A DNA stretch of 64,000 nucleotides. Source: an uncultured Methanosarcinales archaeon. Lineage in GTDB: Archaea > Nanobdellota > Nanobdellia > Woesearchaeales > DATGWN01. The position numbers and the translations under genes are program-made. Shown here in pieces: positions 4,085-62,617 of this stretch. Every line of letters begins with the position of its first letter. The first letter of the stretch is position 1. A model generated the notes under the pieces. It worked only from the letters and a program-made list of their open reading frames with translations, was not told the DNA's origin and did not search any database. The stretch covers positions 555-64,554 of the forward strand of contig CAZKZU010000001.1 of the NCBI GenBank assembly GCA_964557345.1, read 5' to 3'.

Positions 4085-4347
4085 TTATAATAAGCACCTC
4101 TCTATTTTTTATTTTTTTATTTTTAAAAAAATTATATTTTAATTTATGATCCTCGATGATGATAAGTTTCGATTAAATAAAAAGTAGCATCTGTCAAAAC
4201 TTTTATACGTTTTGCTAAGGTTCTGCGTTCCCGGATGGAGCATCCCCTCGCAACGAACTCGCAGTGTGGAATTATGAGTTTTGACCTTTTGGGATGCAAC
4301 TTTTTATTGTACAATTAATTTATTATTTATTTAGGAAGGTATTCCCT

Positions 4348-4578: not shown

Positions 4579-5345
4579 TTCTGAAAAACTTTGGGTCTGC
4601 ATCATGTAATGATTCTGAAAAGTTAAATGCTTTTTCTGATACTTCAAAAATATTTCCTATAAAAGGATTTCAAGCGACATCTCTTATAGATTACCCTGGA
4701 AATATTTGTGCAGTTATTTTTTTAGCTGGATGTAATTTTAGATGTGGCTTTTGTCACAATAAAGATTTAGTTTTTAATTCTAGTAATTTACAACTTCATA
4801 ACGAGGAAGAAATATTAAGTTTGCTTTCTAAACGTTCTAAGTTGATTGATGGGGTTTGTATTACTGGAGGAGAACCAACACTCTATCCTTACTTATATGA
4901 TTTTATTGTCAAGATAAAAAAAATAGGACTGAAAGTTAAGCTTGATACTAATGGGACTAATACTTTTCTTTTATCTCAGTTGATTTCTGAAAGATTGGTG
5001 GATTATGTTGCTATGGATATTAAGCAATGTAAGCAAAAATATGATTTAATTTGTGGCACTAAAGTAGATATGTCTCAAGTAATTGGTTCTGTAGAATTAT
5101 TGAAAATAAGTTATATTGATTATGAATTTAGGACGACGTTTGTACCTGAGTTAATAAGTTGGGAAGATATAGTTGAAATTTCTAAATGGTTAAATGGTGC
5201 AAAAAGATATGTTTTGCAACAATTTGTTCCTATGTATACTCTTATTAATCCAAAATTGACCAAAACTATTTCTGAAGCTGATTTGAAAATGATTTCTGAG
5301 AGAGTAAAGCCTTGCTTTGGAACAGTTGAAGTTAGAGGACATTAA
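4575..5345 (+). CDS. nrdG: Anaerobic RNR activating enzyme (radical SAM)
   Basis: CNFRCGFCHN (Cx3Cx2C) and GGEPT motifs. Translationally coupled to the upstream redoxin gene, downstream of nrdD. Confidence 0.75.
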   Translation: MILKNFGSASCNDSEKLNAFSDTSKIFPIKGFQATSLIDYPGNICAVIFLAGCNFRCGFCHNKDLVFNSSNLQLHNEEEILSLLSKRSKLIDGVCITGGEPTLYPYLYDFIVKIKKIGLKVKLDTNGTNTFLLSQLISERLVDYVAMDIKQCKQKYDLICGTKVDMSQVIGSVELLKISYIDYEFRTTFVPELISWEDIVEISKWLNGAKRYVLQQFVPMYTLINPKLTKTISEADLKMISERVKPCFGTVEVRGH

Positions 5346-8257: not shown

Positions 8258-8277
8258 AGTAACTTGTTTAAAATTAT

Positions 8278-8772
8278 TTAGTGTTTATCATATTTTTTTG
8301 TTTTGATTAATTTTAACTTTTCAATATACTCTAAAGGCAAATTACATTCTTTAGCACCTTCAATTATAGTCGTCATGTAATTTACATAGGGTAAAAACAT
8401 ATCTTCAGTCATCAAACTAAAGTCATTGCTATAAACTCTGTAGGTTATTGCAGAATATGTTGTACCTGCCATATTTGTAACTAATATGCTCTCTCTTTTA
8501 TATTTTGGAAATTGTTCTTGACTAGTGCCCTCCCAATAATCTAATTTTAAAATATCATCATCAGTTACTTCAAATATAACACCCCACAACTTATCGTTCA
8601 TACTACTATCAAAACTAGCAACGCCACCTTTTTTTTTCAAAGAAAATTTTGGAAAAATTAATTTCATATTATTGATATAGACGATATCTAACAATTGCAA
8701 AGTCTTATTCTTAAGCCTTTCCCTTATTTGAGATAAATTCATATTTGAACCATATGCAAAATAATATTTCAT
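8278..8772 (-). CDS. Gamma-glutamyl cyclotransferase / AIG2-like fold protein embedded in the R-M operon
   Basis: N-terminal YFAYGSNM hallmark and LDYWEG motif (GGCT/GGACT/AIG2 family). Lies 40 bp after the mod stop and 20 bp before the res start, on the same strand. Confidence 0.55.
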   Translation of the reverse strand: MKYYFAYGSNMNLSQIRERLKNKTLQLLDIVYINNMKLIFPKFSLKKKGGVASFDSSMNDKLWGVIFEVTDDDILKLDYWEGTSQEQFPKYKRESILVTNMAGTTYSAITYRVYSNDFSLMTEDMFLPYVNYMTTIIEGAKECNLPLEYIEKLKLIKTKKYDKH

Positions 8773-8812
8773 TTTCCCTCAATAAAAACATAACTTTCTA
8801 TAATTAATATAA

Positions 8813-11253: not shown

Positions 11254-11808
11254 TTAAATAATGTCTTCAATTACTTTTACAAATGCTTTAGCTCTTTTTA
11301 GTGATGTTTTTGCTTTTTCTTTTTCTGCATTTTTTCCAAGTTCGTATGTGAATATTTTTCTTTTATTCATTTCTGCTGAGAAATCATCAATCATTTCAAA
11401 TACTCTGTTTTCTGAAATTTGCATGAGTTCTTCAGCTTCATTTATTGCTTGTTTATATTCTTCAATAAAGTGTTTTTTTAGTAATTTATTTTGATTGATA
11501 AAATAATATATTATTGCGTGATATGTGAAGCGATGGATACCGTATTCAGACTTTATTTTGTGATTATATTTTGCAAGAAGTGCTGTAGCTGCAAAGAACA
11601 TGGAGTAATAAGCACTGTTAATTACCCAAAGATACGTATTTATTTTTTCAGTTTCAGATATGTCAAAAAGCCTATTTGATACAATTATTGATTGTTTTGC
11701 TTTATCTAGAAAAAAATGATCTGTTCCTTCAATTGATTTAGTAATAATTCCTTCGGAAATGGCTCTTTTAATTATTTTATCGCTTTCGTTTAATTTATTA
11801 GTATCCAT
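11254..11808 (-). CDS. HEPN-like all-alpha protein, partner of the upstream nucleotidyltransferase
   Basis: All-helical 184 aa. Overlaps the upstream NTase gene by 11 nt. Paralog of 55755..56249. No canonical Rx4-6H motif. Confidence 0.35.
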   Translation of the reverse strand: MDTNKLNESDKIIKRAISEGIITKSIEGTDHFFLDKAKQSIIVSNRLFDISETEKINTYLWVINSAYYSMFFAATALLAKYNHKIKSEYGIHRFTYHAIIYYFINQNKLLKKHFIEEYKQAINEAEELMQISENRVFEMIDDFSAEMNKRKIFTYELGKNAEKEKAKTSLKRAKAFVKVIEDII

Positions 11809-12391
11809 TTTTTGTCTTTAATGTATTAATAAATTGCTCGTATCCTGTGATTACATAATGATTTTTTTCAATTTCGTTCCAAACGTTTATTGTTTTAGAT
11901 AGCCACATTTCTTTTAAATCCAGTTTTTTTATTATATTTATATCTGCATTATATAGTGAAAGCTGGTTTTTGATAACTCTTTCAAATTTATCTCTATTTA
12001 TGTCGTCATTAATTATAAATAGTAAATCCATATCTGAATTTTTTGTCGAGGCTCCTTTCGCATAGCTTCCGAATAAAATGCATGCAAAATTATATTCTAC
12101 GTTTAGAAGAGTTTCTTGGATGTTTTTTAAAGTTTTGTCTTTTTTTTCCGAAAATCTTTCCATTTCAACTGTTACATATTCGAGATTACATTTTTTGAAA
12201 TTAAGCTTTATAACTTTAGCAGAGCCTATTTTATTTGTGTTTATTAGCTCTTTTTTTTCTAATCCCTTTATTATTTTATGTGTTTGAGGATATTTTTGGT
12301 TTAATTTTTCGGATATTTTTTTGATAGATATATCTGTGGTGAAATCCTCGAACAATATTTTCAATATTTGGTATTCGTTTTTCTTTAACAT
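11798..12391 (-). CDS. wHTH-fused minimal nucleotidyltransferase (MNT/Pol-beta superfamily)
   Basis: GSYAKGASTKNSDMDLLFI (GS..D.D NTase motif) and an N-terminal wHTH-like segment. Paralog of 55187..55768. Confidence 0.6.
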   Translation of the reverse strand: MLKKNEYQILKILFEDFTTDISIKKISEKLNQKYPQTHKIIKGLEKKELINTNKIGSAKVIKLNFKKCNLEYVTVEMERFSEKKDKTLKNIQETLLNVEYNFACILFGSYAKGASTKNSDMDLLFIINDDINRDKFERVIKNQLSLYNADINIIKKLDLKEMWLSKTINVWNEIEKNHYVITGYEQFINTLKTKNGY

Positions 12392-13491: not shown

Positions 13492-13830
13492 ATGGAAATT
13501 TGGATAAAAGTAGATGATTTATGGGAAAAATTTAAAAATATGTGTTATATCAATGGATATAACATGAAAAAAGACATATTGCGATATCCTCGATTGGATA
13601 CAATTTTAATGGTTGAAAGTTTTATTCAGAAGAAAGATGGGATGTTTAAGAAAAGAAAACTCTGGGAAAGTCTTCCTAAGAAAATGATGTATCAGACTTT
13701 TTGTGTAATTATAGATTATTTAGTAGTTTCTCATAAAATTTCAATCGACAAAGAGGGGAAAATTGGGTGGATATATTATCCTAAAAGCAACAAAAATGTT
13801 AAGAAAGATAGTAGTTTGTTTTGGAAGTGA
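13492..13830 (+). CDS. Hypothetical protein, possible antitoxin partner of the downstream RelE-like gene
   Basis: 112 aa; overlaps the downstream gene by 10 nt; no recognisable motif. Confidence 0.2.
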   Translation: MEIWIKVDDLWEKFKNMCYINGYNMKKDILRYPRLDTILMVESFIQKKDGMFKKRKLWESLPKKMMYQTFCVIIDYLVVSHKISIDKEGKIGWIYYPKSNKNVKKDSSLFWK

Positions 13831-14165
13831 AAATGATTTTACCTTCTAAAGTAAGATTTTTAGATAAATCTTTACAAGATGCTTATTTTTCTTTACAAAG
13901 CGGATTTGATGATGAGAAAAAACTTTTTAAGAGTTTGAATAAAGCCTTTACTGAAATAGAAAAAAATGCTTTTTGTGGTATACAAGTACCAAAAAATCTA
14001 ATTCCTAAAAGATATATTAAGAATGATATTGTAAATATTTGGAAGTATAATCTTCCTAACGGTTGGAGATTATTATATTCTGTTGAAAATCAAAAGATAT
14101 GTGTTGTTTCAATAGTAATAGAATGGTTGGATCATAAGTCTTATGAGAGGAGGTTTAAATATTAG
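13821..14165 (+). CDS. RelE/ParE-family toxin-like protein
   Basis: C-terminal YNLPNGWRLLYSVENQKICVVSIVIEWLDHKSYE matches the RelE/ParE core pattern (W/YRl.Y.v......v.vl.i.H....Y). Confidence 0.4.
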   Translation: MEVKMILPSKVRFLDKSLQDAYFSLQSGFDDEKKLFKSLNKAFTEIEKNAFCGIQVPKNLIPKRYIKNDIVNIWKYNLPNGWRLLYSVENQKICVVSIVIEWLDHKSYERRFKY

Positions 14166-30186: not shown

Positions 30187-30570
30187 TTATGTTTTTTCTA
30201 TTTTTGTTTTTTCTCTTATTTCTTCTCTAATATTCATTGCTTTCATAAAGCCACAAAGCATTTTTCTTATTTCTATTATATCGATAAGTATTTCATTGCA
30301 CCAGTTTTCATTTAGTAATTTTATGTCTCTAAAATAATTGACCCAGTATTCTGCTTCAGTTATTTCTGCAAGAACTATTCTTATTTTGCATTTAGTATAT
30401 CTATCTGTTCTATACCCTTTCATTTCTGCAAGATTTGCTGGAACAGAAGTTATGCTTCTAAATAGTTGTTCTCTAAAATACAGGTTTTCTATTTTTTGTG
30501 CTTCTGTTGATACTTTAATTGCTAGATCGTATGCTTTTTTGTAAACTAATAGATTGTCGATGTTTGTCAT
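30187..30570 (-). CDS. Four-helix-bundle protein (23S rRNA intervening-sequence protein family, TIGR02436-like)
   Basis: LLVYKKAYDLAIKV....SITSVPANLAE pattern characteristic of this family; 127 aa. Confidence 0.45.
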   Translation of the reverse strand: MTNIDNLLVYKKAYDLAIKVSTEAQKIENLYFREQLFRSITSVPANLAEMKGYRTDRYTKCKIRIVLAEITEAEYWVNYFRDIKLLNENWCNEILIDIIEIRKMLCGFMKAMNIREEIREKTKIEKT

Positions 30571-30751: not shown

Positions 30752-30824
30752 TGGGAACGGTGGGACTTGAACCCACGACTTCAAGAGCTTCAGTCTTGCA
30801 CTCTTCCAGCTGAGTTACGTTCCC
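30752..30824 (-). tRNA. tRNA-Phe (anticodon GAA)
   Basis: The reverse complement GGGAACGTAACTCAGCTGGAAGAGTGCAAGACTGAAGCTCTTGAAGTCGTGGGTTCAAGTCCCACCGTTCCCA folds as a cloverleaf. It has a 7 bp acceptor stem, a CAAGA/TCTTG anticodon stem with loop CTGAAGC, GTGGG/CCCAC T-arm and discriminator A. CCA is not encoded. A TATATAAA box lies ~34 nt upstream on the minus strand. Confidence 0.9.
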
Positions 30825-31452: not shown

Positions 31453-31869
31453 TTATTTAACATTAACAGTTCCTAATTGAACGCCTGCTAATTCTAGAGG
31501 GTAAATTCCTTTATATTTTGGTGTTGCTGTAATAATTGCGTATCCGCCTGCAACAATGTCTTCTCTTACGTTCATTTGAGGAATTTCTACTCTTTTAGTA
31601 TCGCTTTGGGAATTGTATATAGTAATTGTATTAGCTACTCCTGCTGTCATACTTATTGTACTTGGATTAAATTGACCATCAATAATTTCAATATCCCACG
31701 ATATTGGTTTAGCTGGAGAATTAACAACAGTTGTGTCTTTTGTTTCAATAACTTTTGAAGTGTCTGCTGCTTGAGTAGTGTTGTCGTTATCAGCAGGCTG
31801 TGCTGTGCATGCAACTAATAAAAGAGCTGCAATCATCATTATTATTGTTATTATTTTCATTTTTATCAC
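31453..31869 (-). CDS. Small secreted lipoprotein, tandem paralog of 30987..31448
   Basis: Signal peptide plus LVAC lipobox; shared C-terminal beta-rich domain. Confidence 0.45.
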   Translation of the reverse strand: MIKMKIITIIMMIAALLLVACTAQPADNDNTTQAADTSKVIETKDTTVVNSPAKPISWDIEIIDGQFNPSTISMTAGVANTITIYNSQSDTKRVEIPQMNVREDIVAGGYAIITATPKYKGIYPLELAGVQLGTVNVK

Positions 31870-31999
31870 ATCAAGTGGGATGTTTATTGATATTATAAAC
31901 CTTGCTTTTTTGTAGTTAATTAGGGCTTTGTTTATTTATAAAAGATGATGTTAAATTAGAACTTAAAGGAATTACAAAAAAAAGAAAATAAAAAGCAAA

Positions 32000-32896
32000 T
32001 TAATTTGCTTTGAAATGTTTTACTAATGCAATTATTCCCCATATTATTGCAATGAATATTGCGTAAGGCAATATTGCAAAAATTAAGTATAGTAAGCTAT
32101 TCATGCTTTGTACTAAAGTTTTTACTAGGTCTGCAAATTTTACAAATGCCACGTCAATATAATTAGGTGTTTTTTCAGTCATTACTAAGTAAACTGTTGA
32201 ATATTCTACTTTATTGTCAAGATTGTTTAATGAATCTTCAAGGTATTTAATTGTTCTTTCTTCATCGAATATTCTGTCATTTAATGTAATTTTATCAGCT
32301 ATAATGTCTGCTTTGTCATACATTGCTTGATATCTTGCAAGTCTTTCTTTTTCAACCGCTATTTCAATTTTAGTATTTTTGAAGCTTGCTGTAATATCTG
32401 CTGAGTTTTCGCTAAATGATTTTACTTCTCCTAATTTTTTTAGTTCAGTTACTGTTAAATCATAGCTAGATACTGGAATTTTTATTGTGTATGATCCAGA
32501 AGAATATTTGTTTTTTCCTGATCCTTCTGAATTCACATTTTGACTTAATATTATGCTTTTTGTCGATGAGGCTAATGCCGTTACTTCGCTTTCTTTATTA
32601 TTAAATTCTCCTCTAGTAATTTCTAATCCTAGATTAACAGTTTTAGTTATTTTTCGGTCTGCAATTTCTGGTGCAAAATCACTAACTGATGGACTTGGAT
32701 AATACATATTTTTACTTAAGCTACTACTTACGCCATCATTTGCAGAATATCTGCCGGACATTGAATTAGAATACTGCGCTGAATTTGAAACATTGCTTAG
32801 TAAATTTGGCATGCTAAAAATTAATAAAATTACTAAAACGATCAAGATTATTAACCAGTTGTCTGTTATTTTTTTCCATTGTTCTTTTGCTGTCAT
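32000..32896 (-). CDS. Membrane-anchored protein with N- and C-terminal TM helices (DUF4349-like architecture)
   Basis: N-terminal TM, ~230 aa extracytoplasmic region with a coiled-coil segment, C-terminal TM; architecture only. Confidence 0.3.
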   Translation of the reverse strand: MTAKEQWKKITDNWLIILIVLVILLIFSMPNLLSNVSNSAQYSNSMSGRYSANDGVSSSLSKNMYYPSPSVSDFAPEIADRKITKTVNLGLEITRGEFNNKESEVTALASSTKSIILSQNVNSEGSGKNKYSSGSYTIKIPVSSYDLTVTELKKLGEVKSFSENSADITASFKNTKIEIAVEKERLARYQAMYDKADIIADKITLNDRIFDEERTIKYLEDSLNNLDNKVEYSTVYLVMTEKTPNYIDVAFVKFADLVKTLVQSMNSLLYLIFAILPYAIFIAIIWGIIALVKHFKAN

Positions 32897-32968
32897 TTTT
32901 CCTCTTTATATTTTAAATTTTATTTTTATCTATTCAATTTTATATTTATAAATCTATTCTTGATATGT

Positions 32969-33140
32969 GCTCTGTAGAAAATCTGTCGCTTACGCTCCTA
33001 TTTGCCAAGTTCGCTCGCAGATTTTAGTTCGCTAGCGCTCACAATTGTCGCCACGCTCGTCGTTATCACTCCTTGCTGCTCCTCATATGTCTACGTTAAA
33101 ATAGCTCACAAAAAGGCAACAATAACGATTTTCTACAGAG
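32969..33140. repeat. 172 bp element bounded by a perfect 15 bp inverted repeat (gctctgtagaaaatc); its core resembles the MITE-like family at 41254, 45655 and 62446
   Basis: Terminal inverted repeats read directly. The internal segments tttgccaagttcgc, tgtcgccacgctc and ctacgttaaaatagctcacaa resemble repeat C. GC-rich relative to the flanks. Confidence 0.5.
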
Positions 33141-33322
33141 CCCTTAATATAGGAAAAGGGTTTCATATTAGCCCTTGCTAAACTCAGAGGTTTTTACTTA
33201 GCTCTTGATTTGTGTTTGAATGATTGTTTTAGAACTAGCAGTATTAATCTAGTAAAAAGTTGTTTTAGATAAATAAGTTATAATAAGAATTAATAAAAAA
33301 AATAAAAAAAAAGAAAGCTAAT

Positions 33323-34540
33323 TTACTGGAAATAAGCTGTGTCGTTAAAGACTGGAGCTCGATTCTTATTTTCAATTACAATTGCTATATCTTTGCTTAC
33401 TGAATCTTTACCATCGCTTACAGTTACAATTGTTTTATAATTTCCTGCATCTGTATAAGTTGTTTGGTATGTTGAAGATTTCATAAAGCCGCTATATGTA
33501 ATTTTTAAGCTGTCGCCATCTTTGTCTGAAACTACAGGTTTTATTTCAATTAAATCTCCTTCTGAGACTGTAATTGTGCTTGGTACGTCAATTACTGGTA
33601 GATTGTTTAAAGCCTTAACTGTAACTTTAAATGTTTCTTTGTCTTGTAATTTCCCGTCGGATGCTGTTACATCTATTTCGTAAACTCCTGCGTCTCCTAC
33701 TTTAGTTGTCCATTTTCCATTTGTATCAAGTGGCATGCCATATACTATTGATAATGCATCTCCATCTGGATCTGTTGCGCTTGCAGAAACTTTTACAGTG
33801 TCTTTTTCAGTGACTGTTAAGTCAGAGATAGGAGATAATTTTGGAGCTCTGTTTACGTTGTTGATTGTAATTGAAATTGTTTTTGTGTTTTCAGTTTTAC
33901 CATCTTTAGCTGTTAATGTTACAGTTTTATCTCCTGCATCACTATAAGTTGTTTGGTATTCTGAAGTAGTCATAAATCCTGAATATTTTAAAGTTACTTT
34001 GTCGCCATCTTCATCAGTTACTGTTGGATTGAATGTAATTAAATCTCCTTCATTTACTGTGATGTCTTTAAAGTTTGTAATAACGGGTGCTCTATTTACA
34101 GCGTCGATAATTAATCTGATTTTTTGAGTACTTTCAAGTTGACCATCGGAAGCAGTTACAGAAATAATATATTCTCCAGCATCTCCGATTTTAGTAGTCC
34201 ATTCTCCATTTTTGTCTAACGGAAGTGAAAATGTATATGTTAATTTACTTCCATCAGGGTCATAAGCTAAATCTTTTTTAAATTTTACAACATCGCCTTC
34301 TTTGAAAGTTTTTGTTGGAAGATCTTTGATCGCTATGTTATCTTTGCTGTTATCTACGATTACAGTAGATTTATTTTCTTTTGCTGTAGTGCCTTCAGTT
34401 GTATTGCTTTTTGAATAATTCAAATCAAGCAGTACGGACTTAGTGTCATTTGTATTATTTGCACTAGTTCCGGTTGGTGTTTGGCAACCAGCTAATACTA
34501 GTAGAAATAAGCACAATATTATTGCTAGTACTTTTTTCAT
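33323..34540 (-). CDS. Surface lipoprotein with three or more cadherin-like / putative-Ig (He_PIG-type) repeats
   Basis: LAGC lipobox; repeated ~90 aa modules containing NRAPV...D.DGD.L...Y signatures. Confidence 0.55.
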   Translation of the reverse strand: MKKVLAIILCLFLLVLAGCQTPTGTSANNTNDTKSVLLDLNYSKSNTTEGTTAKENKSTVIVDNSKDNIAIKDLPTKTFKEGDVVKFKKDLAYDPDGSKLTYTFSLPLDKNGEWTTKIGDAGEYIISVTASDGQLESTQKIRLIIDAVNRAPVITNFKDITVNEGDLITFNPTVTDEDGDKVTLKYSGFMTTSEYQTTYSDAGDKTVTLTAKDGKTENTKTISITINNVNRAPKLSPISDLTVTEKDTVKVSASATDPDGDALSIVYGMPLDTNGKWTTKVGDAGVYEIDVTASDGKLQDKETFKVTVKALNNLPVIDVPSTITVSEGDLIEIKPVVSDKDGDSLKITYSGFMKSSTYQTTYTDAGNYKTIVTVSDGKDSVSKDIAIVIENKNRAPVFNDTAYFQ

Positions 34541-40171: not shown

Positions 40172-41215
40172 TTAAATATCAAATCTTAATTTGGCTGCAA
40201 TTCCGCCTAGCCCATCAAGTCTTTTTACGTGATCTCCTTTTCCGGATATGATTTTAATTTTTCCGCCATTTTCTTCTATTTGTCTAAATAGAAATTCTAG
40301 TTCGCCCATGGTTTCGTTTTCTCTTTTCTTTTTGATTAAGTTGTCGGAACAGACAAGTGTTTCAATTGCAGATTGTTCGTTTGCTTTTGTGCAATCTTTT
40401 AATCCATATGCTACTTTTGAATCTTTAGAAATGCTCGTAAATATGTCCTCTACAAGTCTTGCATCTCGTACAGCTTGTTGATCTTTTAGTGCTATTTCTA
40501 TTTCCGGTCTTCTTAGAAGTTCAGCAAAACTACTTTCAGAGACTTCGTTTATGATTGCAAAGATTGTTTTCTTTTTTAAATCTCCTAGTTCATTTTCCAT
40601 ATTATTTTTCCAGAAATGACTGCTTGCGCAAATAATATGTTTTGGTTTAATTCTATTATCAAGTTCAGTTAGTTGATCTACGATTTCTTTAAAGAAATTT
40701 GTTGCTTTTGGAGTTCCTGCAACTTTTTTTTCTACATTTCCTGCAACTTTTGAAATAGTATGAAAGCTATTTTTTTCTAATTTTGCAAATATTGCTTCTT
40801 CTCGATCAAAAATACATGCAATGATTTTAGAATCTTCTTTATTTACTGCTTCATTGATTTTGTCGAGTTGATAAGTTAACCAATTTTTTCGTATTTCAAT
40901 TTCATCGTTTTCTGCTACGTTTAATGAATGATAACTTCCAAGAGGAATATCTTCTGGACCTGCAATAACAGTTCCAAGAATTTTTAGATTAGTATCTTCT
41001 AAATCGATTTTTTCCGCTTTTATTGCTAAAAAGACTGGTTTTTTGATAGCTTTTGTTTTTTCTGAGGTTTTATCTCCTAATATTATTTTTCTTATTGTAA
41101 TTCCTGAAACTGCATCCCCTTTGCTTAATATAGTACTAATACACCATAGGTCATCTATGCTTTCTGGCTTTATCTTTAAGCTTCCTTGTTTTAGGTTTTG
41201 GGATATTATTTTCAT
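40172..41215 (-). CDS. pelA: Pelota / Dom34-like mRNA surveillance factor
   Basis: Typical Pelota N-terminus MKI....G.LKIKPESIDDLWCISTIL.KGD and an eRF1-domain-3-like C-terminus; 347 aa. Confidence 0.8.
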   Translation of the reverse strand: MKIISQNLKQGSLKIKPESIDDLWCISTILSKGDAVSGITIRKIILGDKTSEKTKAIKKPVFLAIKAEKIDLEDTNLKILGTVIAGPEDIPLGSYHSLNVAENDEIEIRKNWLTYQLDKINEAVNKEDSKIIACIFDREEAIFAKLEKNSFHTISKVAGNVEKKVAGTPKATNFFKEIVDQLTELDNRIKPKHIICASSHFWKNNMENELGDLKKKTIFAIINEVSESSFAELLRRPEIEIALKDQQAVRDARLVEDIFTSISKDSKVAYGLKDCTKANEQSAIETLVCSDNLIKKKRENETMGELEFLFRQIEENGGKIKIISGKGDHVKRLDGLGGIAAKLRFDI

Positions 41216-41253: not shown

Positions 41254-41387
41254 AATTATACTGCCAATTCGCCTTTCTGGTTTTTGTCGGCATTCGCCTG
41301 AGTATAGTCGCGAACGCTCCTCACTATGCGTTCGTCGCTGCTCCATTGAGTCATACGCAATATCGGCTCATGAGCAGGCAGTATATT
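41254..41387 (+). repeat. MITE-like repeat copy A (~134 bp, terminal inverted repeats ~TATACTGCC/GGCAGTATA)
   Basis: Nearly identical to the reverse complement of 45655..45790, and colinear with 62446..62579. GC-rich and intergenic. Confidence 0.7.
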
Positions 41388-41479
41388 TTTGGATTGTTTC
41401 GGGGTAACTTTTTTTTATGGTGCGTTCCCACTATATACTATTATAGATATATTTATAAATATTAAGTGCAAATAAGTTC

Positions 41480-43168
41480 TTGATGAAGAGTAAGTTAGCG
41501 CAGACAGCTAGTGCAGCAGGAGTAGTTGGTGTTATAGCGTTAGTTTTAATTATTTATATCGTATTAATTCCTGGTATTAAAGATTCTATTAATGGAGGAA
41601 GTTCTAGTGGCGGTAGTTCTGCTGGTGGGACAACAAGCGGTTCAACCCTTGTAAATGGATCTAGACCTTTAAATTATGTTGATCAGTTTTCTTTTCCAGG
41701 TCCTGGATTAGTTGATAGTTCAACAAATGGAAGGCAAATTATTTTACCTACTCTTAATCTTAAGACAACTACAAATTCTAAAATTTTAGCAAGTGATAAT
41801 AGTTTTTATGTGTATAAAACTTTTTTTGGAAATGATAAAAGAAAATCAATTATGTTTGATATTAAAGATTCAGAGCAAATTAGTAATGCACAGATTTCCT
41901 TTTTAGTTAAGAAATCATACGGTATGATTTATATTGATTTAAACGGCGTTAGAATTTATGAAGATGAACTTAGTTCTATGAATATAAATCCAATTAAAGT
42001 AAGTTCTGCTTTATTTCAAAAAAATAATTTATTAGAAATTTATACTGACTATCCAGGAATTGTATTCTGGAGACAACATCAATATATAATTGATGACTTT
42101 AAACTTTTTGCAGACGTTACTCAAACAAGTCAACAATCAAGTTTGGTTTCTTTTGATCTTAAACCATCAGAATTTAAATCATTAAGTAGATTGAAACTTA
42201 AATTTTATCCAACTTGCACTCAATCAACTGTCGATAAATTATATGTCTCATTAAATGGGCAAACAATTTCTGAACAAGTTCCTGATTGTAATGTATTAAA
42301 TATTTATGATCTTCCTCAAATACAAACAAAAGAAGGAATGAATACTATCGAGTTTAAAACTTTAAAAGATTCGTACTTGGTTGATCAACTTTCAGTGCAG
42401 ACTGAGCTTAAAGAAAATGATGATTTAATTTATACTTTTGATTTAGATAAAAAATTATTTAATTTTAAAGAAGAAGCTAAAAACGTGTGTGGTGAATTAG
42501 ATGGCGTATGTCCTGATTCATGTACTGCTGATCAAGATAAAGATTGCTGTTTCTTAGAATATAATAAAGGATTTTGGTGTACTGCTCCAACATTAAATGA
42601 AAATGATAAATGTGTTGGTAGAGTTGATAATTATAATATTGGTTTATGTCCTTCTGGATATGAAGATAAAAGTAAAAATCCTCCAACTGATTTTGAAAAT
42701 TTATGTGGTGATGATACTGATGGTACTTGTCCATTAGGTTGTTCTAAATTTATGGATAAGGATTGTTGTTTTGAGAATACTGGATATTGGTGTTCCGACG
42801 TTGCAACTAATGGAATGGCTGGCGTTTGTGTTGATGTTGTTACAAAAGATAGTTGTTCTTTTTGTCCTAGCGGATATAAAGGAGAGGATTCAACTCCAAC
42901 TTGTGATGGTTATGAAACTAGAAATCCAATGGAAGAAGTTTCTCAATTAAAATCTACATATCAAGCTGACGTTCAACTAAGATTTGTTGATGATGGTAAT
43001 AGAAAGAAAGGTAAAATTATTGTTGATGGTAGTACTATTTCATTTACTACACTAGAAGGAACTTATACTAAAGAAATTAGTACATTAGTTCAAGATGGAA
43101 ATAATTATGTGCAGATTGTTCCTGAAAGCGATTTCAATTTAGTTAATGTTAAGGTTACTGTTAAATAG
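41480..43168 (+). CDS. Surface protein with a pilin-like (class III-type) N-terminal signal and tandem Cys-rich modules
   Basis: N-terminus MMKSKLAQTASAAGVVGVIALVLIIYIV. Repeated C..DG.CP..C....DKDCCF...G(F/Y)WC modules at ~42480-42915. Confidence 0.4.
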   Translation: MMKSKLAQTASAAGVVGVIALVLIIYIVLIPGIKDSINGGSSSGGSSAGGTTSGSTLVNGSRPLNYVDQFSFPGPGLVDSSTNGRQIILPTLNLKTTTNSKILASDNSFYVYKTFFGNDKRKSIMFDIKDSEQISNAQISFLVKKSYGMIYIDLNGVRIYEDELSSMNINPIKVSSALFQKNNLLEIYTDYPGIVFWRQHQYIIDDFKLFADVTQTSQQSSLVSFDLKPSEFKSLSRLKLKFYPTCTQSTVDKLYVSLNGQTISEQVPDCNVLNIYDLPQIQTKEGMNTIEFKTLKDSYLVDQLSVQTELKENDDLIYTFDLDKKLFNFKEEAKNVCGELDGVCPDSCTADQDKDCCFLEYNKGFWCTAPTLNENDKCVGRVDNYNIGLCPSGYEDKSKNPPTDFENLCGDDTDGTCPLGCSKFMDKDCCFENTGYWCSDVATNGMAGVCVDVVTKDSCSFCPSGYKGEDSTPTCDGYETRNPMEEVSQLKSTYQADVQLRFVDDGNRKKGKIIVDGSTISFTTLEGTYTKEISTLVQDGNNYVQIVPESDFNLVNVKVTVK

Positions 43169-43300: not shown

Positions 43301-45598
43301 ATGGCTAATGTTCCTGGCGCTACTGGAGGTTCTTCTACTAGTAGTCCCGTTACTCCTTCAGCTCCCATCATTCCTAAGCCGGGATTTATGGAAAGGTTTG
43401 GAAAATATATTCCTTTTGTTGTAAATAAGTCAAGAGCAGCGGCAGTAGCTGGTGTGGGAATGGCGGGTGCAGCTTGGGGATTTGGATCTAAAGTAGCTAA
43501 AAGTGTTGCTGAAAAAGCGCCTTCTATTAAATATTCAATGATGTTTATTATTGCATGTATTTTGGCAGCAGTTAATTTTGTTTATTCTTCCAATAATACT
43601 TTAAAATTAAGTCTTCTTATTGTATATTTGGTTATTTTTTATTATTCATTTCAGAATAATATTGATAATATAAATAAAGAATACGGAAAGATCATCTTTT
43701 TTTCACTGATATATATTTTTGCTCCAACACTTGGTAATTTACTTGTATCATATGTGCCTGATATTGGTATTAGAAATTTATTAGTATATTTTTTGTTTAT
43801 ATTTGGATATTTGAGTCCATTGATAATGCTTTTATCAGTTCATCATGAAGAAAATTGGTTTAGCATTACTTTAGAATTACTTTTAGTCTTTTTCTTAATA
43901 GTTTTAGTTTTAAAATTTATGGCTACAGCAGGAATTCTTCCAGAAGGAGATCAAATTAGTTCTGATCAAAAGGAGGCATTTACTTCATTATTTGTTGGGA
44001 CTTGGGACACCATTAAATCCATTCCTACTTATGTTAAAACCTCAATCAATGGAACTGCGCACGATATAAATCAATCTTGGAATCAGATTCAAGGTAATAG
44101 TTATGAGGAAGAAATTGATCAAAGTGCCCTGGTAAGTACTCTTGGTTTAAAATTAAATGATATATCTTTTTCTAATACAGATGGCGCTTATTATCAAGGA
44201 GATCCTATTGATGCATGGACCTCTATTGAAGGAAAGAGTCTTGCTCGAGTTATTAAAGTAAAAACTTCGTGTGTTGTTGATAGGAAAAGAGGTTTAACTG
44301 AAAATATAACTTGGGTTCCTAAAAAACCTGAATTTTATATCAACGATATTGGATTTGAAGATATCTCGTGTAAGTTTCCAAAAAATAAATTTACTACTGT
44401 TAGAAGTTATGAATTAGAAATGTTTGCTGATTTTGATTTTACAACTAGTTCATATTTAAGACGATATTTTATTTCTGAAGCAGATAATAATAATATGAGG
44501 AAAAATAATATAGATCCAATTGTTTATTATAATATTCCACAGACTGATGAAGAAGGTAAATATACTAACGGACCAGTTGAACTTTCAGTTGTTAAAAACA
44601 ATTTATTACAACCTTTAGCTGATCAAGGAGATACTTTTTTATTAGGAATTAAAATCGCGACAAATAGAAAACAAGGTTTTGGCGATGGTAAATTAGTTAC
44701 AATGACCAATCTTCATCTTTCTTTGCCCCCCGGATTTGAGCTTGCTAGAGATGGTTCTAGATATGACTGCGGTAATTATGAGTTCGAAGTTTATCCTGGT
44801 GCTGATTGTATTGCGGATTGTACCCGGCTTATGAAAGGAGAAAGATGTATAGCTGATTGTAATAATTATAATAATTATAGGTTAAAAGCAGCTGATTCTA
44901 ATAATATAAGTGCTGGTGTTTTACCAAAAATAAAAGAAGAAGGAAAAGAATTCGTTAAATTACCTTTGCAAATTCCATGTTATGTGAAAACTAAATCTTC
45001 GCAATCTATACTTAAAACATCCAAGTTCGTTATGGAAAATTTCAGAGCAACAGCAGATTATGATTTCGAAATTTCAGTAGCAAAACCTTTTAAGATTCAA
45101 GAAAAGCAAGGTTATGTTAATGCAGAAAAATTAGCTGATTTTTGTGGCTTTAAAACAAGTTATATCAATTCAAGTTTAATTACAAAAGATAATGTTAATA
45201 GTTTAATTTCCAGGTCTGCTGAGCTTATTAATGATAGTAAAGTTTCTTTTTCAGGTTCAACAGTTTGTTCACAATTAATCAAAGCTATTGTCGTATATAA
45301 GAATAGAAATGGTGTTGAAAATAATATGGGTTATGGAATTACTGGTATAACTGAAGAACAGCTTGATTATTCTTATCAATGGCCAACTAATTTAGCTAAT
45401 GTTGAAACACAACATCAAGATATAACTTTAACTTCAAATTATTTGAAATATGCGCTTAGTCATGAGTGTACGATTGATGGACAACAAAATTTAGATTGTG
45501 CTCTTGGTTATTATTTCTGTAATTCTGGAACTGGTAGTTGCGTTGAAACTGTAGCTCCAATTGTAATACAGATCGCTAAAGCATTAAGTACTCCTTAA
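43301..45598 (+). CDS. Large polytopic membrane protein with a Gly/Ala-rich N-terminus and a large Cys-containing extracellular domain
   Basis: 765 aa; multiple TM helices at residues ~80-215, then ~550 aa soluble domain with many Cys. Confidence 0.4.
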   Translation: MANVPGATGGSSTSSPVTPSAPIIPKPGFMERFGKYIPFVVNKSRAAAVAGVGMAGAAWGFGSKVAKSVAEKAPSIKYSMMFIIACILAAVNFVYSSNNTLKLSLLIVYLVIFYYSFQNNIDNINKEYGKIIFFSLIYIFAPTLGNLLVSYVPDIGIRNLLVYFLFIFGYLSPLIMLLSVHHEENWFSITLELLLVFFLIVLVLKFMATAGILPEGDQISSDQKEAFTSLFVGTWDTIKSIPTYVKTSINGTAHDINQSWNQIQGNSYEEEIDQSALVSTLGLKLNDISFSNTDGAYYQGDPIDAWTSIEGKSLARVIKVKTSCVVDRKRGLTENITWVPKKPEFYINDIGFEDISCKFPKNKFTTVRSYELEMFADFDFTTSSYLRRYFISEADNNNMRKNNIDPIVYYNIPQTDEEGKYTNGPVELSVVKNNLLQPLADQGDTFLLGIKIATNRKQGFGDGKLVTMTNLHLSLPPGFELARDGSRYDCGNYEFEVYPGADCIADCTRLMKGERCIADCNNYNNYRLKAADSNNISAGVLPKIKEEGKEFVKLPLQIPCYVKTKSSQSILKTSKFVMENFRATADYDFEISVAKPFKIQEKQGYVNAEKLADFCGFKTSYINSSLITKDNVNSLISRSAELINDSKVSFSGSTVCSQLIKAIVVYKNRNGVENNMGYGITGITEEQLDYSYQWPTNLANVETQHQDITLTSNYLKYALSHECTIDGQQNLDCALGYYFCNSGTGSCVETVAPIVIQIAKALSTP

Positions 45599-45654
45599 TT
45601 GTAGATTGTTATATTTCTTATTTTATTTGATTTTACATATTATTCTTTGACTGA

Positions 45655-45790
45655 AAGTATACTGCCTGACTATGAGCCAATAAAACGTACTAAATTGGTG
45701 GAGCAACGACGAACGCATAGTGAGGAGTGTTCGCGACAATAGACAGGCGAATGCCGATAAAAAAAAGAACGGCGAATTGGCAGTATACTT
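45655..45790 (-). repeat. MITE-like repeat copy B (inverted relative to copy A)
   Basis: Its reverse complement aligns with 41254..41387 over ~135 bp with few mismatches. Perfect 12 bp terminal inverted repeat aagtatactgcc/ggcagtatactt. Confidence 0.7.
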
Positions 45791-45857
45791 GATAAAATCA
45801 TAAGACTTAAGCAATTTTACCATAAATATTAAAAATAGCAGAGAATATAGCTATGTT

Positions 45858-46820
45858 ATGAGAAGAAGTATTTTAAGATTGATTTTGATTGTTGTGGTAG
45901 TATTTTCTTTATTGTTCATGTCTGGATGCGGATCTAGCGGTAATACAATTAATTACATTTCTGATAATCAATTTAGAACTGGTACTAATGGAGTTACTAT
46001 GGAATTTGTGCAAAATTCTCCTCCTGAATCGATGATTGAAGATGCTGAAGTTTCTGTTGGAGTTAAATTACATAATGATGGCGCTTATAATGTTCAAAAT
46101 GGGTATTTAGTTGTTAGTTATGATAAGGATTATTTGACTTTATTTAATACGGGACAAAAGTCCTTTAATTTAGAAGGGAAAAATAAATATAATAAAGCTG
46201 GTGAAGAAAAGAGTATTTTTTTTGATGGTAAAACTTCTGTGTTAGAAGTTGAAAGCCAAAGACATGATGTTCCAATTGTAGCATCTATATGTTATCAATA
46301 TAATGCAACTTTATTAGATTTACTTTGCTTTGATACTCCTGATTTGCCGAATAAAGAAAAGGGTAAAACTATTTGTTCCTATAAGTCCGATTATTCTTAT
46401 AGTGGCCAAGGGGCTCCAGTTTCGATTTCTAACGTTAAATTAACTTTATCCTATTCTGAGGTTACTCAAAAATTTAAACCCATTATTGACTTTGAAATAA
46501 GTCATACTGCAAGTGGTTTTAGTAGTGATAAAGGCTTGGTTGTTAATTATGATAATTATAGATCAGCATGTACTAGTTCTGGATCGTCATCTTTTGATAA
46601 TTTGAATTTAGTTAAATTTGAGGCATCAATATCTGATGAAATTTTATCTTGTAATAAAGAAGAAGGGACAGTTACTCTTAGAGATGGAAAAGCAAATGTT
46701 AGATGCACTGGAAATTATATTGAGGCAGGATATTTGCCTTATCAAGCTCCATTAAAGATAGATTTACTTTATGGTTATATGACTACTACATCTACGACAA
46801 TGCAAGTAATTCGAAGTTAA
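45858..46820 (+). CDS. Secreted lipoprotein
   Basis: Signal peptide plus lipobox MSGC|GSS; Cys-containing beta-rich protein, 320 aa. Confidence 0.45.
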   Translation: MRRSILRLILIVVVVFSLLFMSGCGSSGNTINYISDNQFRTGTNGVTMEFVQNSPPESMIEDAEVSVGVKLHNDGAYNVQNGYLVVSYDKDYLTLFNTGQKSFNLEGKNKYNKAGEEKSIFFDGKTSVLEVESQRHDVPIVASICYQYNATLLDLLCFDTPDLPNKEKGKTICSYKSDYSYSGQGAPVSISNVKLTLSYSEVTQKFKPIIDFEISHTASGFSSDKGLVVNYDNYRSACTSSGSSSFDNLNLVKFEASISDEILSCNKEEGTVTLRDGKANVRCTGNYIEAGYLPYQAPLKIDLLYGYMTTTSTTMQVIRS

Positions 46821-46895
46821 GAAATAAGTTATTATTTTTAGGTCATTAACGTTTAGATTTTTTAGCATTTAAATAAGTCTTATGATTTAATTTTA

Positions 46896-47687
46896 TTAGA
46901 TTAGTTCAAATACGTAGTTTTTAACATACAAACTATTAGTAGTTGTAGAATATGTCACTATTTGGTTTGTATCGATTTTATAGATTTCTTTATTTGTTAA
47001 TTTTACGCACGTATCTTCTGTTTTTGTTACTTTACATCTAACAAAGAAGTCTTTAGCTTGATAGATAGTTGATATGTCTGTAAAAAAATCCGATTTAGCT
47101 GTAAAGTGTGGCCAGTAATAATAGTAGCTATGATCATTATTGGTTGCCATTCTTTTTATTCTTTCGCTATGTTTTGCAATGCCGTATACATTTTCATCTT
47201 TTTCAATTAGTGTGTAATTATTAGGGGAAATAGCGTTTATTGTTTTGTCTTCTTCTTTGTTATCCATTATAATTGAGTTGTATAATTTTATTTTGTTAGG
47301 TAGTTCTAAGTTGGTTTGATTTTCCATCCACTCCAATGCATATTTAGATAAATCTAATTGATAAGTTGAATTTTGGAGAATAATTTTCCCGTCTTGTTTT
47401 GGTAGATTTTTAATGGCATAGTCTTCGAAGATTTTGCTTTTTTCATCAATTATCTTTTGTGACGCAGTTTCAATGAAGAACCTTTGTTTGTAGCTTTCTT
47501 GCTTCATTTCTGTAATTTTAGCTGCGTCTATACCAACATAAGTAGTTGAGGATATTTGTGTTGCAATTCCACTAATTGCTATGTATAAAACGAAAATAAC
47601 GAATACCATTAATAGACTTACAATTAGGACTGATGCTTTTTTTCCAGCTTTATGTATTGAACTTTTTGTATTGTTTTTTGTTGTCAT
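46896..47687 (-). CDS. Pilin-like protein (class III signal peptide)
   Basis: Signal HKAGKKA|SVLIVSLLMVFVIFVLYIAI; last gene of the minus-strand pilin-like cluster. Confidence 0.4.
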   Translation of the reverse strand: MTTKNNTKSSIHKAGKKASVLIVSLLMVFVIFVLYIAISGIATQISSTTYVGIDAAKITEMKQESYKQRFFIETASQKIIDEKSKIFEDYAIKNLPKQDGKIILQNSTYQLDLSKYALEWMENQTNLELPNKIKLYNSIIMDNKEEDKTINAISPNNYTLIEKDENVYGIAKHSERIKRMATNNDHSYYYYWPHFTAKSDFFTDISTIYQAKDFFVRCKVTKTEDTCVKLTNKEIYKIDTNQIVTYSTTTNSLYVKNYVFELI

Positions 47688-47691
47688 TTTT

Positions 47692-48189
47692 TTATTTATC
47701 GGTTTTATCTAAAAACATTAGGTATGCTCCTCTATTTTGATAGTTAACCATTAATTCAGCAGAGTATGGATTAACTATTACTATTGAAGGTATTTCTATA
47801 GCACTTTTTCTATATGGCAATATTAAATATGACTTTTTGAAAGGCATTTTATCATTAAAATTTTCATTGGTTACTATGTCCCCTTTAAACGTTACATATT
47901 CTTTTTCAGCAAAAATATTATTGCTATCATCATAATTTTTTAGTTCAATGGTGATTGGAGTATACTCATCGTAAAGAGATCTATTCATCTTTATTAGCAT
48001 TGGAATAAATGAATCTACAATGTCGTTATTGTGAGAATCTGTTATTTTTTTGTTTTTCATTTCTTCTAGTTTAGAACTTAAGAGCCAAAAACCTACTATT
48101 AGTGCTACAAGTATGATTACTCCGATTATTACATCAGTCGCAAGATCTGCTTGTGCTTTTTTTGTATTCCTTATGGTTATTGGTCTCAT
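47692..48189 (-). CDS. Pilin-like protein (class III signal peptide)
   Basis: Signal TKKA|QADLATDVIIGVIILVALIVGF. Confidence 0.4.
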   Translation of the reverse strand: MRPITIRNTKKAQADLATDVIIGVIILVALIVGFWLLSSKLEEMKNKKITDSHNNDIVDSFIPMLIKMNRSLYDEYTPITIELKNYDDSNNIFAEKEYVTFKGDIVTNENFNDKMPFKKSYLILPYRKSAIEIPSIVIVNPYSAELMVNYQNRGAYLMFLDKTDK

Positions 48190-55186: not shown

Positions 55187-55768
55187 ATGTTAACTCCCAA
55201 CGAAAAAAAGGTGTTGAAATTGATTATATTTTCTTTTGATACTGATTATTCTATTAATCAAATAGCAAAAGAGTGTAAGTTATCTGCTAATGGGGCATAT
55301 AAAATTCTTTTAAAATATGAAAAAGAAGGTATTTTACAACATAAAAATATTGCTAATTTGAAATCCTATAAGATTGATTTTAAAAGCGATAAGACCGCCA
55401 GTATTCTCGAATTAGTTTTGATTCCAGAATTGGATAAAAAAATTAAATTGAGATTAGATGATTTGAAAGAAGTAAGAGAGGTTTCTTCTGCTTGTATTTT
55501 CTTCGGTTCTTATATTAATAAAAAGGATCCGAATGATTTGGATGTAATTTTTGTTATTGATAAAAATAAATATAAGAATTATTCCGAAAAAATTGCTGTT
55601 GCAAAAGAAATAATTCCGATTAAAGTACATGATGTTGTTCAAACCTTCGAAGATTTAAAGCAAAATATTTTAAGTAAAGACAAAATTGTTCTTAGTGCAC
55701 TAAAAGAAGGAGTTATACTTTGGGGCTATAATGTTGTAATTCAGGTGATTAAAGATGTCTATAACTGA
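55187..55768 (+). CDS. wHTH-fused minimal nucleotidyltransferase (paralog of 11798..12391)
   Basis: ACIFFGSYINKKDPNDLDVIFVID NTase motif; N-terminal wHTH-like segment. Confidence 0.6.
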   Translation: MLTPNEKKVLKLIIFSFDTDYSINQIAKECKLSANGAYKILLKYEKEGILQHKNIANLKSYKIDFKSDKTASILELVLIPELDKKIKLRLDDLKEVREVSSACIFFGSYINKKDPNDLDVIFVIDKNKYKNYSEKIAVAKEIIPIKVHDVVQTFEDLKQNILSKDKIVLSALKEGVILWGYNVVIQVIKDVYN

Positions 55769-56249
55769 CAAATTAAAAAAATGTTTTAAGGAAGGGGAAA
55801 CTGGGGCTCGTCATAAAGGAGTACGTAAGATTGCAAAATCTCCTGAACTTGCAAATCAACATTTACAAAAAGCGATACATAATTTTAAGGCAATGTCTGA
55901 GTTTCAAAAAATAGGTTATTCGGATTGGTCTGCGTCTGCTTCTTTTTACAGCCTTTATCATTGTCTTTTGGCAATACTTGCTAAAGAAGGATATGAATCT
56001 AGAAATCAAAGTTGTACATTTGCGTTAATTGAAAGTATGATTGATAAGTTATCTATTACAAAAGAAGAATTAAAAGAAATATTTGACAGAGATGTTACTG
56101 AAGATCTAGAGCATAGTAACAAAATTCTTGATATAAGAGAAACAATGCAATATTCAATCAAAACTTCTTTAAAGCAGGAAGAATTTTTAATGTTAAAAGA
56201 AAAAACAAAAATACTTTTTGACAAATTAAGAAGAGATATTGAGAAGTGA
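55755..56249 (+). CDS. HEPN-like alpha-helical partner protein (paralog of 11254..11808)
   Basis: Overlaps the upstream NTase gene by 14 nt; all-helical; no canonical Rx4-6H motif. Confidence 0.35.
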   Translation: MSITDKLKKCFKEGETGARHKGVRKIAKSPELANQHLQKAIHNFKAMSEFQKIGYSDWSASASFYSLYHCLLAILAKEGYESRNQSCTFALIESMIDKLSITKEELKEIFDRDVTEDLEHSNKILDIRETMQYSIKTSLKQEEFLMLKEKTKILFDKLRRDIEK

Positions 56250-61452: not shown

Positions 61453-62346
61453 CTATTCAAATTCTAAATCGAAGAATTCTTCTGGTTTGATTATTCCTAT
61501 GTCGCAGATTACTGCTGTTATTAATTTAGGATCTATTTTTTCAAACATTGTGTTTTTTATTGTGATAAGTTTTGGTGTTTTATCGAATATTATTATTTTT
61601 TCATTTAATCTTTCTATTCCTTTTTTCATTTCATCTATGTTAAATTTTTTAATTTTTTTCATGCAATCTGTGCAGATGTATATTGGAATATCGTACTTGT
61701 TTGCAATCTCTGCTACAAGTTCAGAACCCATTGTGTTTATGAATTTATTTTCTGATGCAGCTTCACATCCAAGTAAAACCATATTAGAGGATTTTACTGC
61801 TAGTCTTATTGATGAGTCTGAGTAAATTGTTACAGGGATATTTAGTTTAGCAATTTCTTCTGCCATTTTTTTCCCATTACCATATGGTCGAGCTTCAGTT
61901 ATATTAACTTTGAAATTTTTGCATTTAGCGTCATTTAGAATTCTTAAAACTGTTGAAGAATATCCGTGGGTGTAAACTACAGAGTTTTCTTTTATTTTAT
62001 TTGCACCATTTCTTCCTATTTCTAAATAAACTTTTTCTAGGTGCTTTTCAATTTTGGTTATTTTTTTATTTAATTCTATTTGAATTTCTTTTAATGTTTT
62101 ATATTTTGATAATGTTTCTTTGTCAAAAATATAATTGATAATGTTAATCGTTGCAGGATCTGATGAAATTACTTCAAATATTGTTGTTTTTGCTTTATCT
62201 AGATTTTTTAGGTAAGTATTAATGAACACGCAAGTATTGTCTAAATCTGTTTTTTCTGCTTTGAATGCTTTTAGACTCCAAAGTGGAAGGTTTTCTGGTC
62301 CAGAAATAGATCCGCTCTTAATATCTGCAATTATTTGCTTAAACAT
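61453..62346 (-). CDS. eIF-2B alpha/beta/delta-family protein (ribose-1,5-bisphosphate isomerase or aIF-2B-like)
   Basis: Family-typical C-terminal core GCEAASENKFINTMGSELVAEIANKYDIPIYICTD; 297 aa. Confidence 0.65.
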   Translation of the reverse strand: MFKQIIADIKSGSISGPENLPLWSLKAFKAEKTDLDNTCVFINTYLKNLDKAKTTIFEVISSDPATINIINYIFDKETLSKYKTLKEIQIELNKKITKIEKHLEKVYLEIGRNGANKIKENSVVYTHGYSSTVLRILNDAKCKNFKVNITEARPYGNGKKMAEEIAKLNIPVTIYSDSSIRLAVKSSNMVLLGCEAASENKFINTMGSELVAEIANKYDIPIYICTDCMKKIKKFNIDEMKKGIERLNEKIIIFDKTPKLITIKNTMFEKIDPKLITAVICDIGIIKPEEFFDLEFE

Positions 62347-62445
62347 AAGATATATGCTAACAATGTGGCTTTAAAAACATTAGTCACTACTTTCTTAGAA
62401 TTTATTAATAATATGAACTATTTTTCTTATATTGTCTTTTGAAAT

Positions 62446-62579
62446 AAGTATTTTGCCAATTCGCCCTACTTCTTTTTGCCGGCATTCGCCTGTATATAGT
62501 CGCCACACTCCTCACTATTCGTTCGTCGTTGCTCCATCTAGATCAACGTAAAAATGGCTCATAACAGGGCAGTATACTT
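62446..62579 (+). repeat. MITE-like repeat copy C (same orientation as copy A)
   Basis: Shares gccaattcgcc, ggcattcgcctg, ctcctcactat.cgttcgtcgttgctcca, ggctcat and gggcagtatactt blocks with A and B. Left terminal repeat degenerate (aagtattttgcc). Confidence 0.65.
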
Positions 62580-62617
62580 ATTTCTTGATGTCTTGATCTT
62601 ACCTTAAAATATATTAT

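Follow-up and report, generated by a model that had tools for sequence, protein, structure and literature searches.

A family of small, GC-rich, MITE-like repeats between the genes of an AT-rich archaeon, and a relative with IS6-type ends

What kind of sequence occupies the intergenic region at 62446–62579 of the DNA stretch analysed here (64 kb, called the window in the following)? The original prediction had taken this segment for the third copy of a dispersed, MITE-like DNA element and had argued against a structured RNA gene. Besides these two possibilities we considered two others: first, that the repeats spread without a classical DDE transposase; second, that their interior is a functional module.

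Members of the repeat family and a relative with IS6-type ends

The following features of the window belong to the family in the narrow sense.

62446–62579, plus strand: copy C, 134 nt, the most eroded family member (nhmmer E=7e-41)
62446–62457, plus strand: left inverted-repeat arm of C, AAGTATTTTGCC, 10/12 to the family arm AAGTATACTGCC
62568–62579, plus strand: right inverted-repeat arm of C, GGCAGTATACTT, exact
62501–62528, plus strand: remnant of the internal hairpin in C, its stem broken by a 1-nt deletion and by substitutions
41254–41388, plus strand: copy A, 135 nt, intergenic between two divergent genes, pelota (40172–41215, minus strand) and an ORF (41480–43168, plus strand)
45655–45790, minus strand: copy B, 136 nt, with perfect 12/12 arms, between 43301–45598 (plus strand) and 45858–46820 (plus strand)
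41419–41439, plus strand: piece of the family core, 21 nt (18/21), lying 30 nt from A and oriented opposite to it

Brought into one orientation, A, B, and C can be aligned from end to end with a mean column identity of 82% and with single-base insertions and deletions only. The segment at 62446–62579 is homologous to A and B over its full length, and its assignment as a third family copy stands. The 21-nt core CTCCTCACTATNCGTTCGTCG is present exactly three times in the window, with none expected, and the 12-mer AAGTATACTGCC, allowing at most one mismatch, was found five times in the 64 kb against 0.2 expected occurrences; all five are arms of A, B, or C. These shared blocks agree with the dispersed family that had been proposed. 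Each of the three copies lies between ORFs, and their GC content of 43–47% exceeds that of the 2-kb bins of the window (26–35%; background 29%), so that the intergenic location and the GC-richness were likewise described correctly.

The terminal inverted repeats call for a correction. The arms are complementary at 11 of 12 positions in A, at 12 of 12 in B, and at 10 of 12 in C, and a related element, E, has arms of 15/15 (see below). In C the right arm is exact as quoted in the original prediction, but the left arm departs from AAGTATACTGCC by two substitutions; the perfect pair that had been given as C's own is exact in copy B only. When the inverted repeat of C is extended (62441–62457 against 62568–62584), 15 of 17 positions are complementary. 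The extra 5 bp, GAAAT/ATTTC, lie in the flanks of C and have no counterpart in A or B. The internal hairpin is intact in copy A, where it consists of CGAACGC, the loop CTCCTCACTAT, and GCGTTCG. C carries 12 private differences compared with 5–6 in the other copies and is the most eroded copy of the family.

The fragment at 41419–41439 had escaped the first reading of the sequence, as had element E. Its score of 24 was equalled by none of 300 shuffles (mean 14.6, sd 1.9), and it probably remains from an older copy or insertion. In the 64 kb the family is thus represented by three copies together with a divergent relative and a fragment; this window and a few short contigs are the basis for statements on copy number and host range.

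The divergent relative was recovered by a profile built without it, which matched at about 33041–33118 (nhmmer E=8e-8). The full element and its ends are as follows.

32967–33142, plus strand: element E, 176 bp, a divergent relative sharing the core (TGCC...GGCA), with different and longer ends
32969–32983, plus strand: left arm of E, GCTCTGTAGAAAATC, a perfect 15-bp repeat with 33127–33141, fitting the pattern GGNTCTGTWGMAAA with one mismatch
33127–33142, minus strand: right arm of E, reading GGCTCTGTAGAAAATC inward, an IS6/IS26-type tip (GG, CTGT, AAA), fitting the pattern GGNTCTGTWGMAAA with no mismatch
32959–32966, plus strand: left putative 8-bp target duplication of E, CTTGATAT, 7/8 with 33143–33150
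33143–33150, plus strand: right putative 8-bp target duplication of E, CTTAATAT, adjacent to the end of the element

Element E is situated between the gene for a PKD/Big_9 surface protein and a DUF4349 gene. In the internal block that was examined most closely it is, judged by eye, about 65% identical to the family. The ends of the IS6/IS26 family are characterized by a GG tip and the motifs cTGTt and caaa (PMC7986276). Read inward, the right tip of E (GGCTCTGTAGAAAA) shows the GG tip followed by both motifs, G7 is conserved as noted for the family (PMC6807381), and 12 of 14 positions are identical to the inverted repeat of IS6100, GGCTCTGTTGCAAA (taken from PMC10470526). The direct repeat flanking E agrees at 7 of 8 positions, for which the chance of at least 7/8 within offsets of ±2 is about 0.02, and its 8 bp correspond to the duplication length of the IS6 family. 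Because of these tips and the direct repeat, E has the appearance of a genuine small derivative of an IS6-type transposon, with an interior that is common to the A–C family.

The ends of A, B, and C (AAGTATACTGCC) have neither the GG tip nor the CTGT/AAA motif, and therefore these copies were not filed as IS6-type. A–C and E thus have a common interior and different ends. Usually it is the ends that are conserved best within a transposon family.

No transposase or integrase domain was detected by Pfam among the window ORFs of at least 90 aa, about one-third of which had no Pfam match of any kind, and no DDE_Tnp_IS240-type gene was found in the window; the absence of a transposase from the window, as originally noted, is consistent with these scans. 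Outside the window, exact-pattern scans of genome and metagenome contigs with CTCCTCACTATNCGTTCG gave chance matches only, as judged from second motifs and from reading the matches. The same was true of viral collections scanned with different exact-pattern blocks, including both arms at MITE spacing, and blastn of B and E against plasmids gave no match. Neither the Pfam analysis of the window nor the exact-pattern scans of genome, metagenome, and viral collections revealed an autonomous element with either type of end. As far as the exact-pattern and protein searches can see, the family is confined to a species-level lineage.

Proposed insertion sites, assembly breaks, and a variant tract

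The genes around the copies have an archaeal character; among them are pelota (40172–41215), an IF-2B family gene (61453–62346), and the gene for a surface protein of 944 aa that has a class III signal peptide. Among named sequences, pelota finds its best relatives in Woesearchaeota/Nanobdellota MAGs, and the nearest relative outside the 90% cluster is only 57% identical, which indicates a sparsely sampled lineage. Judged by these genes, the host is a sparsely sampled, AT-rich, Woesearchaeota-like DPANN archaeon. Elsewhere the window carries a helicase with ResIII and endonuclease domains (5342–8257) next to an N6/N4 DNA methylase (8813–10870), and the region 5342–10870 looks like a type III-like restriction–modification system. 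Also present are two toxin–antitoxin-like pairs of HEPN and nucleotidyltransferase genes (11254–12391 and 55187–56249) and a YoeB-like toxin gene (13821–14165).

Three relatives keep the local gene order, namely, L079, L035, and L036; with pelota proteins 57%, 54%, and 53% identical, respectively, they are distant ones. At site A the spacer upstream of pelota measures 264 nt in the window but only 72 nt in L079 and 58 nt in L036. At site B, where the window has 259 nt between the genes, L036 has 115 nt, and in L035 the two genes overlap. No family element was detected in L035 and L036 by nhmmer (run on all loci from L027 up and again from L035 up), and none is present in the 72-nt spacer of L079, which was read directly. 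Sites A and B are accordingly empty in L079, L035, and L036; an empty site within the species was not encountered. An 18-nt promoter-like box, ATTTATAAATATATCTAT, is common to L079 and the window, where it lies 31 nt and 227 nt, respectively, from the pelota start.

The gene order differs at another place. In L035 and L036 the genes for the PKD/Big_9 protein and a cupredoxin directly follow pelota, whereas in the window they are about 5.6 kb apart from it and (31453–34540) have the DUF4349 gene and element E between them. This arrangement is a local rearrangement relative to L035 and L036.

Between non-allelic copies the 5' flanks are unrelated, with 2–9 identities in 26 nt. The 3' flanks are near background (8–12 of 26 identities against 7.5); this excess is unconvincing, and a repeat unit extending into the 3' flank was rejected. 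Target-site duplications, which the original prediction had named as a sign to look for, could not be detected at A, B, or C (at least 5 bp, within ±6 nt of the ends); only E has one candidate, the 7/8 match over 8 bp. The arms contain GTATAC, a self-complementary sequence, and a palindromic 6-bp duplication could hide inside them.

From these observations, the best explanation of A, B, and C is in our view a MITE-like family of non-autonomous transposons, about 135 bp long, GC-rich, specific to the lineage, and related in its core to an IS6-type element, with C as a decaying copy; we regard this as probable. The copies would have been inserted into free space between terminators and promoters and moved in trans by a transposase encoded outside the window. 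They would since have diverged by about 18% and may no longer be active in any obvious way. Element E, through its IS6/IS26-type ends and its 8-bp direct repeat, would tie the shared core to an IS6-like transposon lineage, and A, B, and C would form a subfamily with different 12-bp ends. The membership of the copies in one family, their intergenic location, the lack of coding capacity, their absence from syntenic relatives, and the lack of RNA covariation are direct observations, as are the IS6-like ends and the direct repeat of E; the spread by transposition, the identity of the transposase, and the present inactivity are what we infer. The MITE reading is only partly supported because two defining features are missing from A–C: no target-site duplication could be detected, and an autonomous element ending in the same way is not known.

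The copies also affect the assembly of the host genome. Of eight short-read contigs from this organism, five begin or end inside a copy or at its edge:

41286: start of contig L028
45708: start of contig L029
45788: start of contig L030
62463: end of contig L032
62470: end of contig L033

These five contigs stem from four sequencing runs, and the breaks lie at copies A, B, and C. In an assembly graph, a repeat or a polymorphic hot spot behaves in this way.

One further contig, L034 (JGI 3300045131), covers locus B, its positions 1–2314 corresponding to 45636–47951 of the window. The two sequences differ at 33 positions, all of which fall into a tract of 134 nt (45683–45816), with no difference in the other ~2.18 kb. 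The tract is offset from the element by about 27 nt: it starts 28 nt inside B and ends 26 nt beyond it, before a TATA-like box. The first 28 nt of the element are those of B; what follows is no closer to one of the copies A, B, and C than to another (80% to B), and the replaced flank of 26 nt has no match elsewhere in the window. A variable repeat of a diversity-generating retroelement (DGR) was rejected, since six of the 33 positions are indels and the changes affect C, G, and T and are not adenine-specific; no reverse transcriptase domain was found in the window. The tract may result from gene conversion by a copy not seen here, from sequence imported from a divergent strain, or from a chimeric assembly. 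Both the contig breaks and the sharply bounded variant tract are useful to know when genomes of this host are assembled and compared.

The missing duplications and the variant tract bear on the possibility that A–C are dispersed palindromic repeats that were not moved by a classical DDE transposase. Two versions can be put forward. In the first, the unit would be the core TGCC...GGCA, and the outer AAGTATAC/GTATACTT would derive from a palindromic target or from a 6-bp GTATAC duplication; as GTATAC is self-complementary, a duplicated target of this sequence could not be distinguished from an extension of the inverted repeat. In the second, spread and homogenization would be due to recombination or gene conversion, as for REP-type or RPE-type repeats. 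The lack of a conventional duplication at A–C, the complementarity running 5 bp into the flanks of C, and the mosaic L034 haplotype, which looks like a recombination tract, all fit such a course. However, the palindrome is extended in C only, the L034 tract runs past the element so that conversion between copies would not suffice, E has conventional transposon features, and no enzyme for a mechanism of this kind was identified in the window. We consider this explanation rather unlikely.

Coding capacity, RNA structure, and the shared core

No reading frame is conserved across the copies, as stops occur in every frame or 1-nt indels shift it. When the six-frame translations of all copies were concatenated and used as a peptide query against a protein database, no match was obtained. 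A small protein or type I toxin was rejected, there being no conserved start or frame.

A structured RNA had to be considered more closely. The copies could be paralogous small RNAs, either sRNA genes or 5' leaders, read from the strand on which B is plus; their ends would then be a closing helix and the GC-rich blocks would be functional. In AT-rich archaeal genomes, an island of high GC content is often an RNA gene, as Klein, Misulovin and Eddy reportedly found in 2002. A structure built by hand was tested on the five sequences; it comprises a terminal helix, a UGAGCC/GGAGCA hairpin, a CGAACGC/GCGUUCG hairpin, and a small GGC-GAAU-GCC hairpin. The closing helix is kept in E with a wholly different sequence (15/15 bp), and several one-sided changes lead to G–U pairs on the B-plus strand only (pairs 76–89 and 39–61). 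This strand also folds better in three of four copies (B, −37.8 versus −33.9; C, −29.3 versus −23.8; E, −57.7 versus −41.0 kcal/mol) as well as in the consensus (−21.2 versus −13.8 kcal/mol on the other strand). Copy A, in contrast, folds better on the other strand, and C folds no better than its shuffles on either (z-scores −0.86 and −0.81).

The covariation likewise argues against an RNA. Three pairs show double changes, a number equalled by 37 of 500 shuffles and not significant, with five sequences giving low power. In the CGAACGC/GCGUUCG hairpin no pair shows a double change and four pairs depart from the consensus only by becoming unpaired; the hairpin is broken in C, D, and E. Changes without compensation are also found in the arms, at position 3 in A and at positions 7 and 8 in C. 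The non-compensatory nature of the hairpin substitutions was therefore described correctly, and compensatory changes, which would have spoken for an RNA family, are absent from this hairpin and not significantly more frequent than in shuffles over the whole structure.

At the gathering threshold Rfam recognized only a tRNA (30752–30824) within the window, and at E<=10 there was no consistent weak match at any copy. The tRNA gene, the only one in the window, is adjoined by a gene of the '23S rRNA intervening sequence protein' family (30187–30570). Two known RNA classes were rejected. For 5S rRNA, the loop ACGAACGCAUAGUGAGGA loosely recalls loop C, but no match was obtained at E<=10 and the order of the helices does not fit; for H/ACA and C/D sRNAs, an ACA box does not follow the closing stem, and consistent C/D boxes are likewise lacking.

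Another GC-rich island of about 133 nt (4176–4308) is closed by a 16-bp inverted repeat (4176–4191/4293–4308) and preceded by a C-box-like GATGATGA. Its neighbours are nrdD on one side and the glutaredoxin-like and nrdG-like genes on the other. Rfam gave no match at E<=10, and the island could be an unrecognized structured RNA; as it shows no significant similarity to the repeat family, we rejected it as a fifth copy.

The surroundings and the base composition of the copies also have to be weighed. B, C, and E sit between tandem genes in the direction of the downstream gene and 67–99 nt upstream of its start; this orientation in three of three cases has a probability of 1/8 only, and A, between divergent genes, is uninformative. 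Among copies A–D, 8 of 62 consensus G/C positions are changed compared with 19 of 73 A/T positions, which is the opposite of neutral decay in a genome of 29% GC and hints at a constraint on the GC blocks. Both the position upstream of a gene in the same direction and the better conservation of G/C would suit an RNA. Against this stand not only the covariation, the broken hairpin, the folding of A and C, and the lack of an Rfam match, but also the orthologous intergenic regions of three relatives that do not contain the element, and the transposon-type tips and flanking direct repeat of E. We therefore regard paralogous RNAs as unlikely.

With respect to the original prediction this means that a DNA element, dispersed, non-coding, and non-autonomous, is retained as the main reading in preference to a structured RNA gene.

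Three observations do not fit a plain decaying MITE: a core common to A–C and E that have different ends, the G/C bias, and the orientation of the copies. The undetected target duplications of A–C and the better folding of the B-plus strand do not fit it either. The first three could be explained if the GC-rich core of about 115 nt (TGCC...GGCA) were a functional module, either a structured RNA or protein-binding DNA, carried inside two inverted-repeat shells, one of them IS6-type, and selected near promoters. Such a module would account for a conserved interior with differing ends, for the slower change of G/C positions, and for copies facing the downstream gene. In a genome-reduced DPANN archaeon it would then be a MITE that has been domesticated or carries a cargo. 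We think it quite improbable that the core has such a role; unless it proves functional, the family opens no new biological question.

Comparison with known systems

Integron attC sites were rejected, as the ends have no R''/R' core sites (RYYYAAC/GTTRRRY) and the copies neither form an array nor share one orientation. The Hgc RNAs (Klein et al. 2002) resemble the present family in being GC-rich intergenic islands of an AT-rich archaeon with a stable predicted fold, here in some of the copies. They differ in that our elements have no Rfam match and no significant covariation, occur as multiple diverging copies, and are not conserved in syntenic relatives.

The palindromic elements of Rickettsia (RPEs) and the Correia elements of Neisseria share with the present repeats a short length (about 100–150 bp), the capacity to form hairpins, a higher GC content than the host genome, and a scattered distribution in a small, AT-rich genome. 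Rickettsia palindromic and Correia-type repeats may be co-transcribed with neighbouring genes. RPEs often lie in frame inside genes, whereas the copies described here are all intergenic, and similarity in sequence to RPEs is not to be expected. The TA duplication of Correia elements was not seen here.

Only E is comparable to the IS6/IS26 family, by its tip GGCTCTGTAGAAAA that fits the signature, by 12 of 14 identities to the IS6100 inverted repeat, and by its 8-bp direct repeat (7/8). Unlike the insertion sequences of that family, E measures 176 bp and encodes no transposase, and the A–C ends AAGTATACTGCC misfit the signature. MITEs of the IS6/IS26 family are recorded in ISfinder as MITEBth2 and MITEHarch3 (PMC7986276, PMC6807381). 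Archaea carry many IS6-type elements, whose membership in the IS6 family is disputed (PMC6807381). E links the lineage-specific family described here to IS6-type transposons.

Mobile DNA of DPANN archaea is poorly catalogued, and a family with no relative in the searched collections adds one lineage-specific example. Archaeal MITEs are said to include the Sulfolobus elements SM1–SM4 reported by Redder et al. in 2001. Prokaryotic MITEs have been surveyed (PMC11602168), and A–C differ from them in having no visible target duplication, no autonomous partner, and no relative found outside the lineage, and in that, from one subfamily to the other (A–C and E), the interior has been conserved better than the ends. 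What A–C have in common with prokaryotic MITEs is a length of about 135 bp, terminal inverted repeats, a non-coding sequence, and dispersed intergenic copies with unrelated flanks that are absent from orthologous sites in relatives and have no transposase nearby. A small, non-autonomous, MITE-like repeat is an ordinary kind of element.
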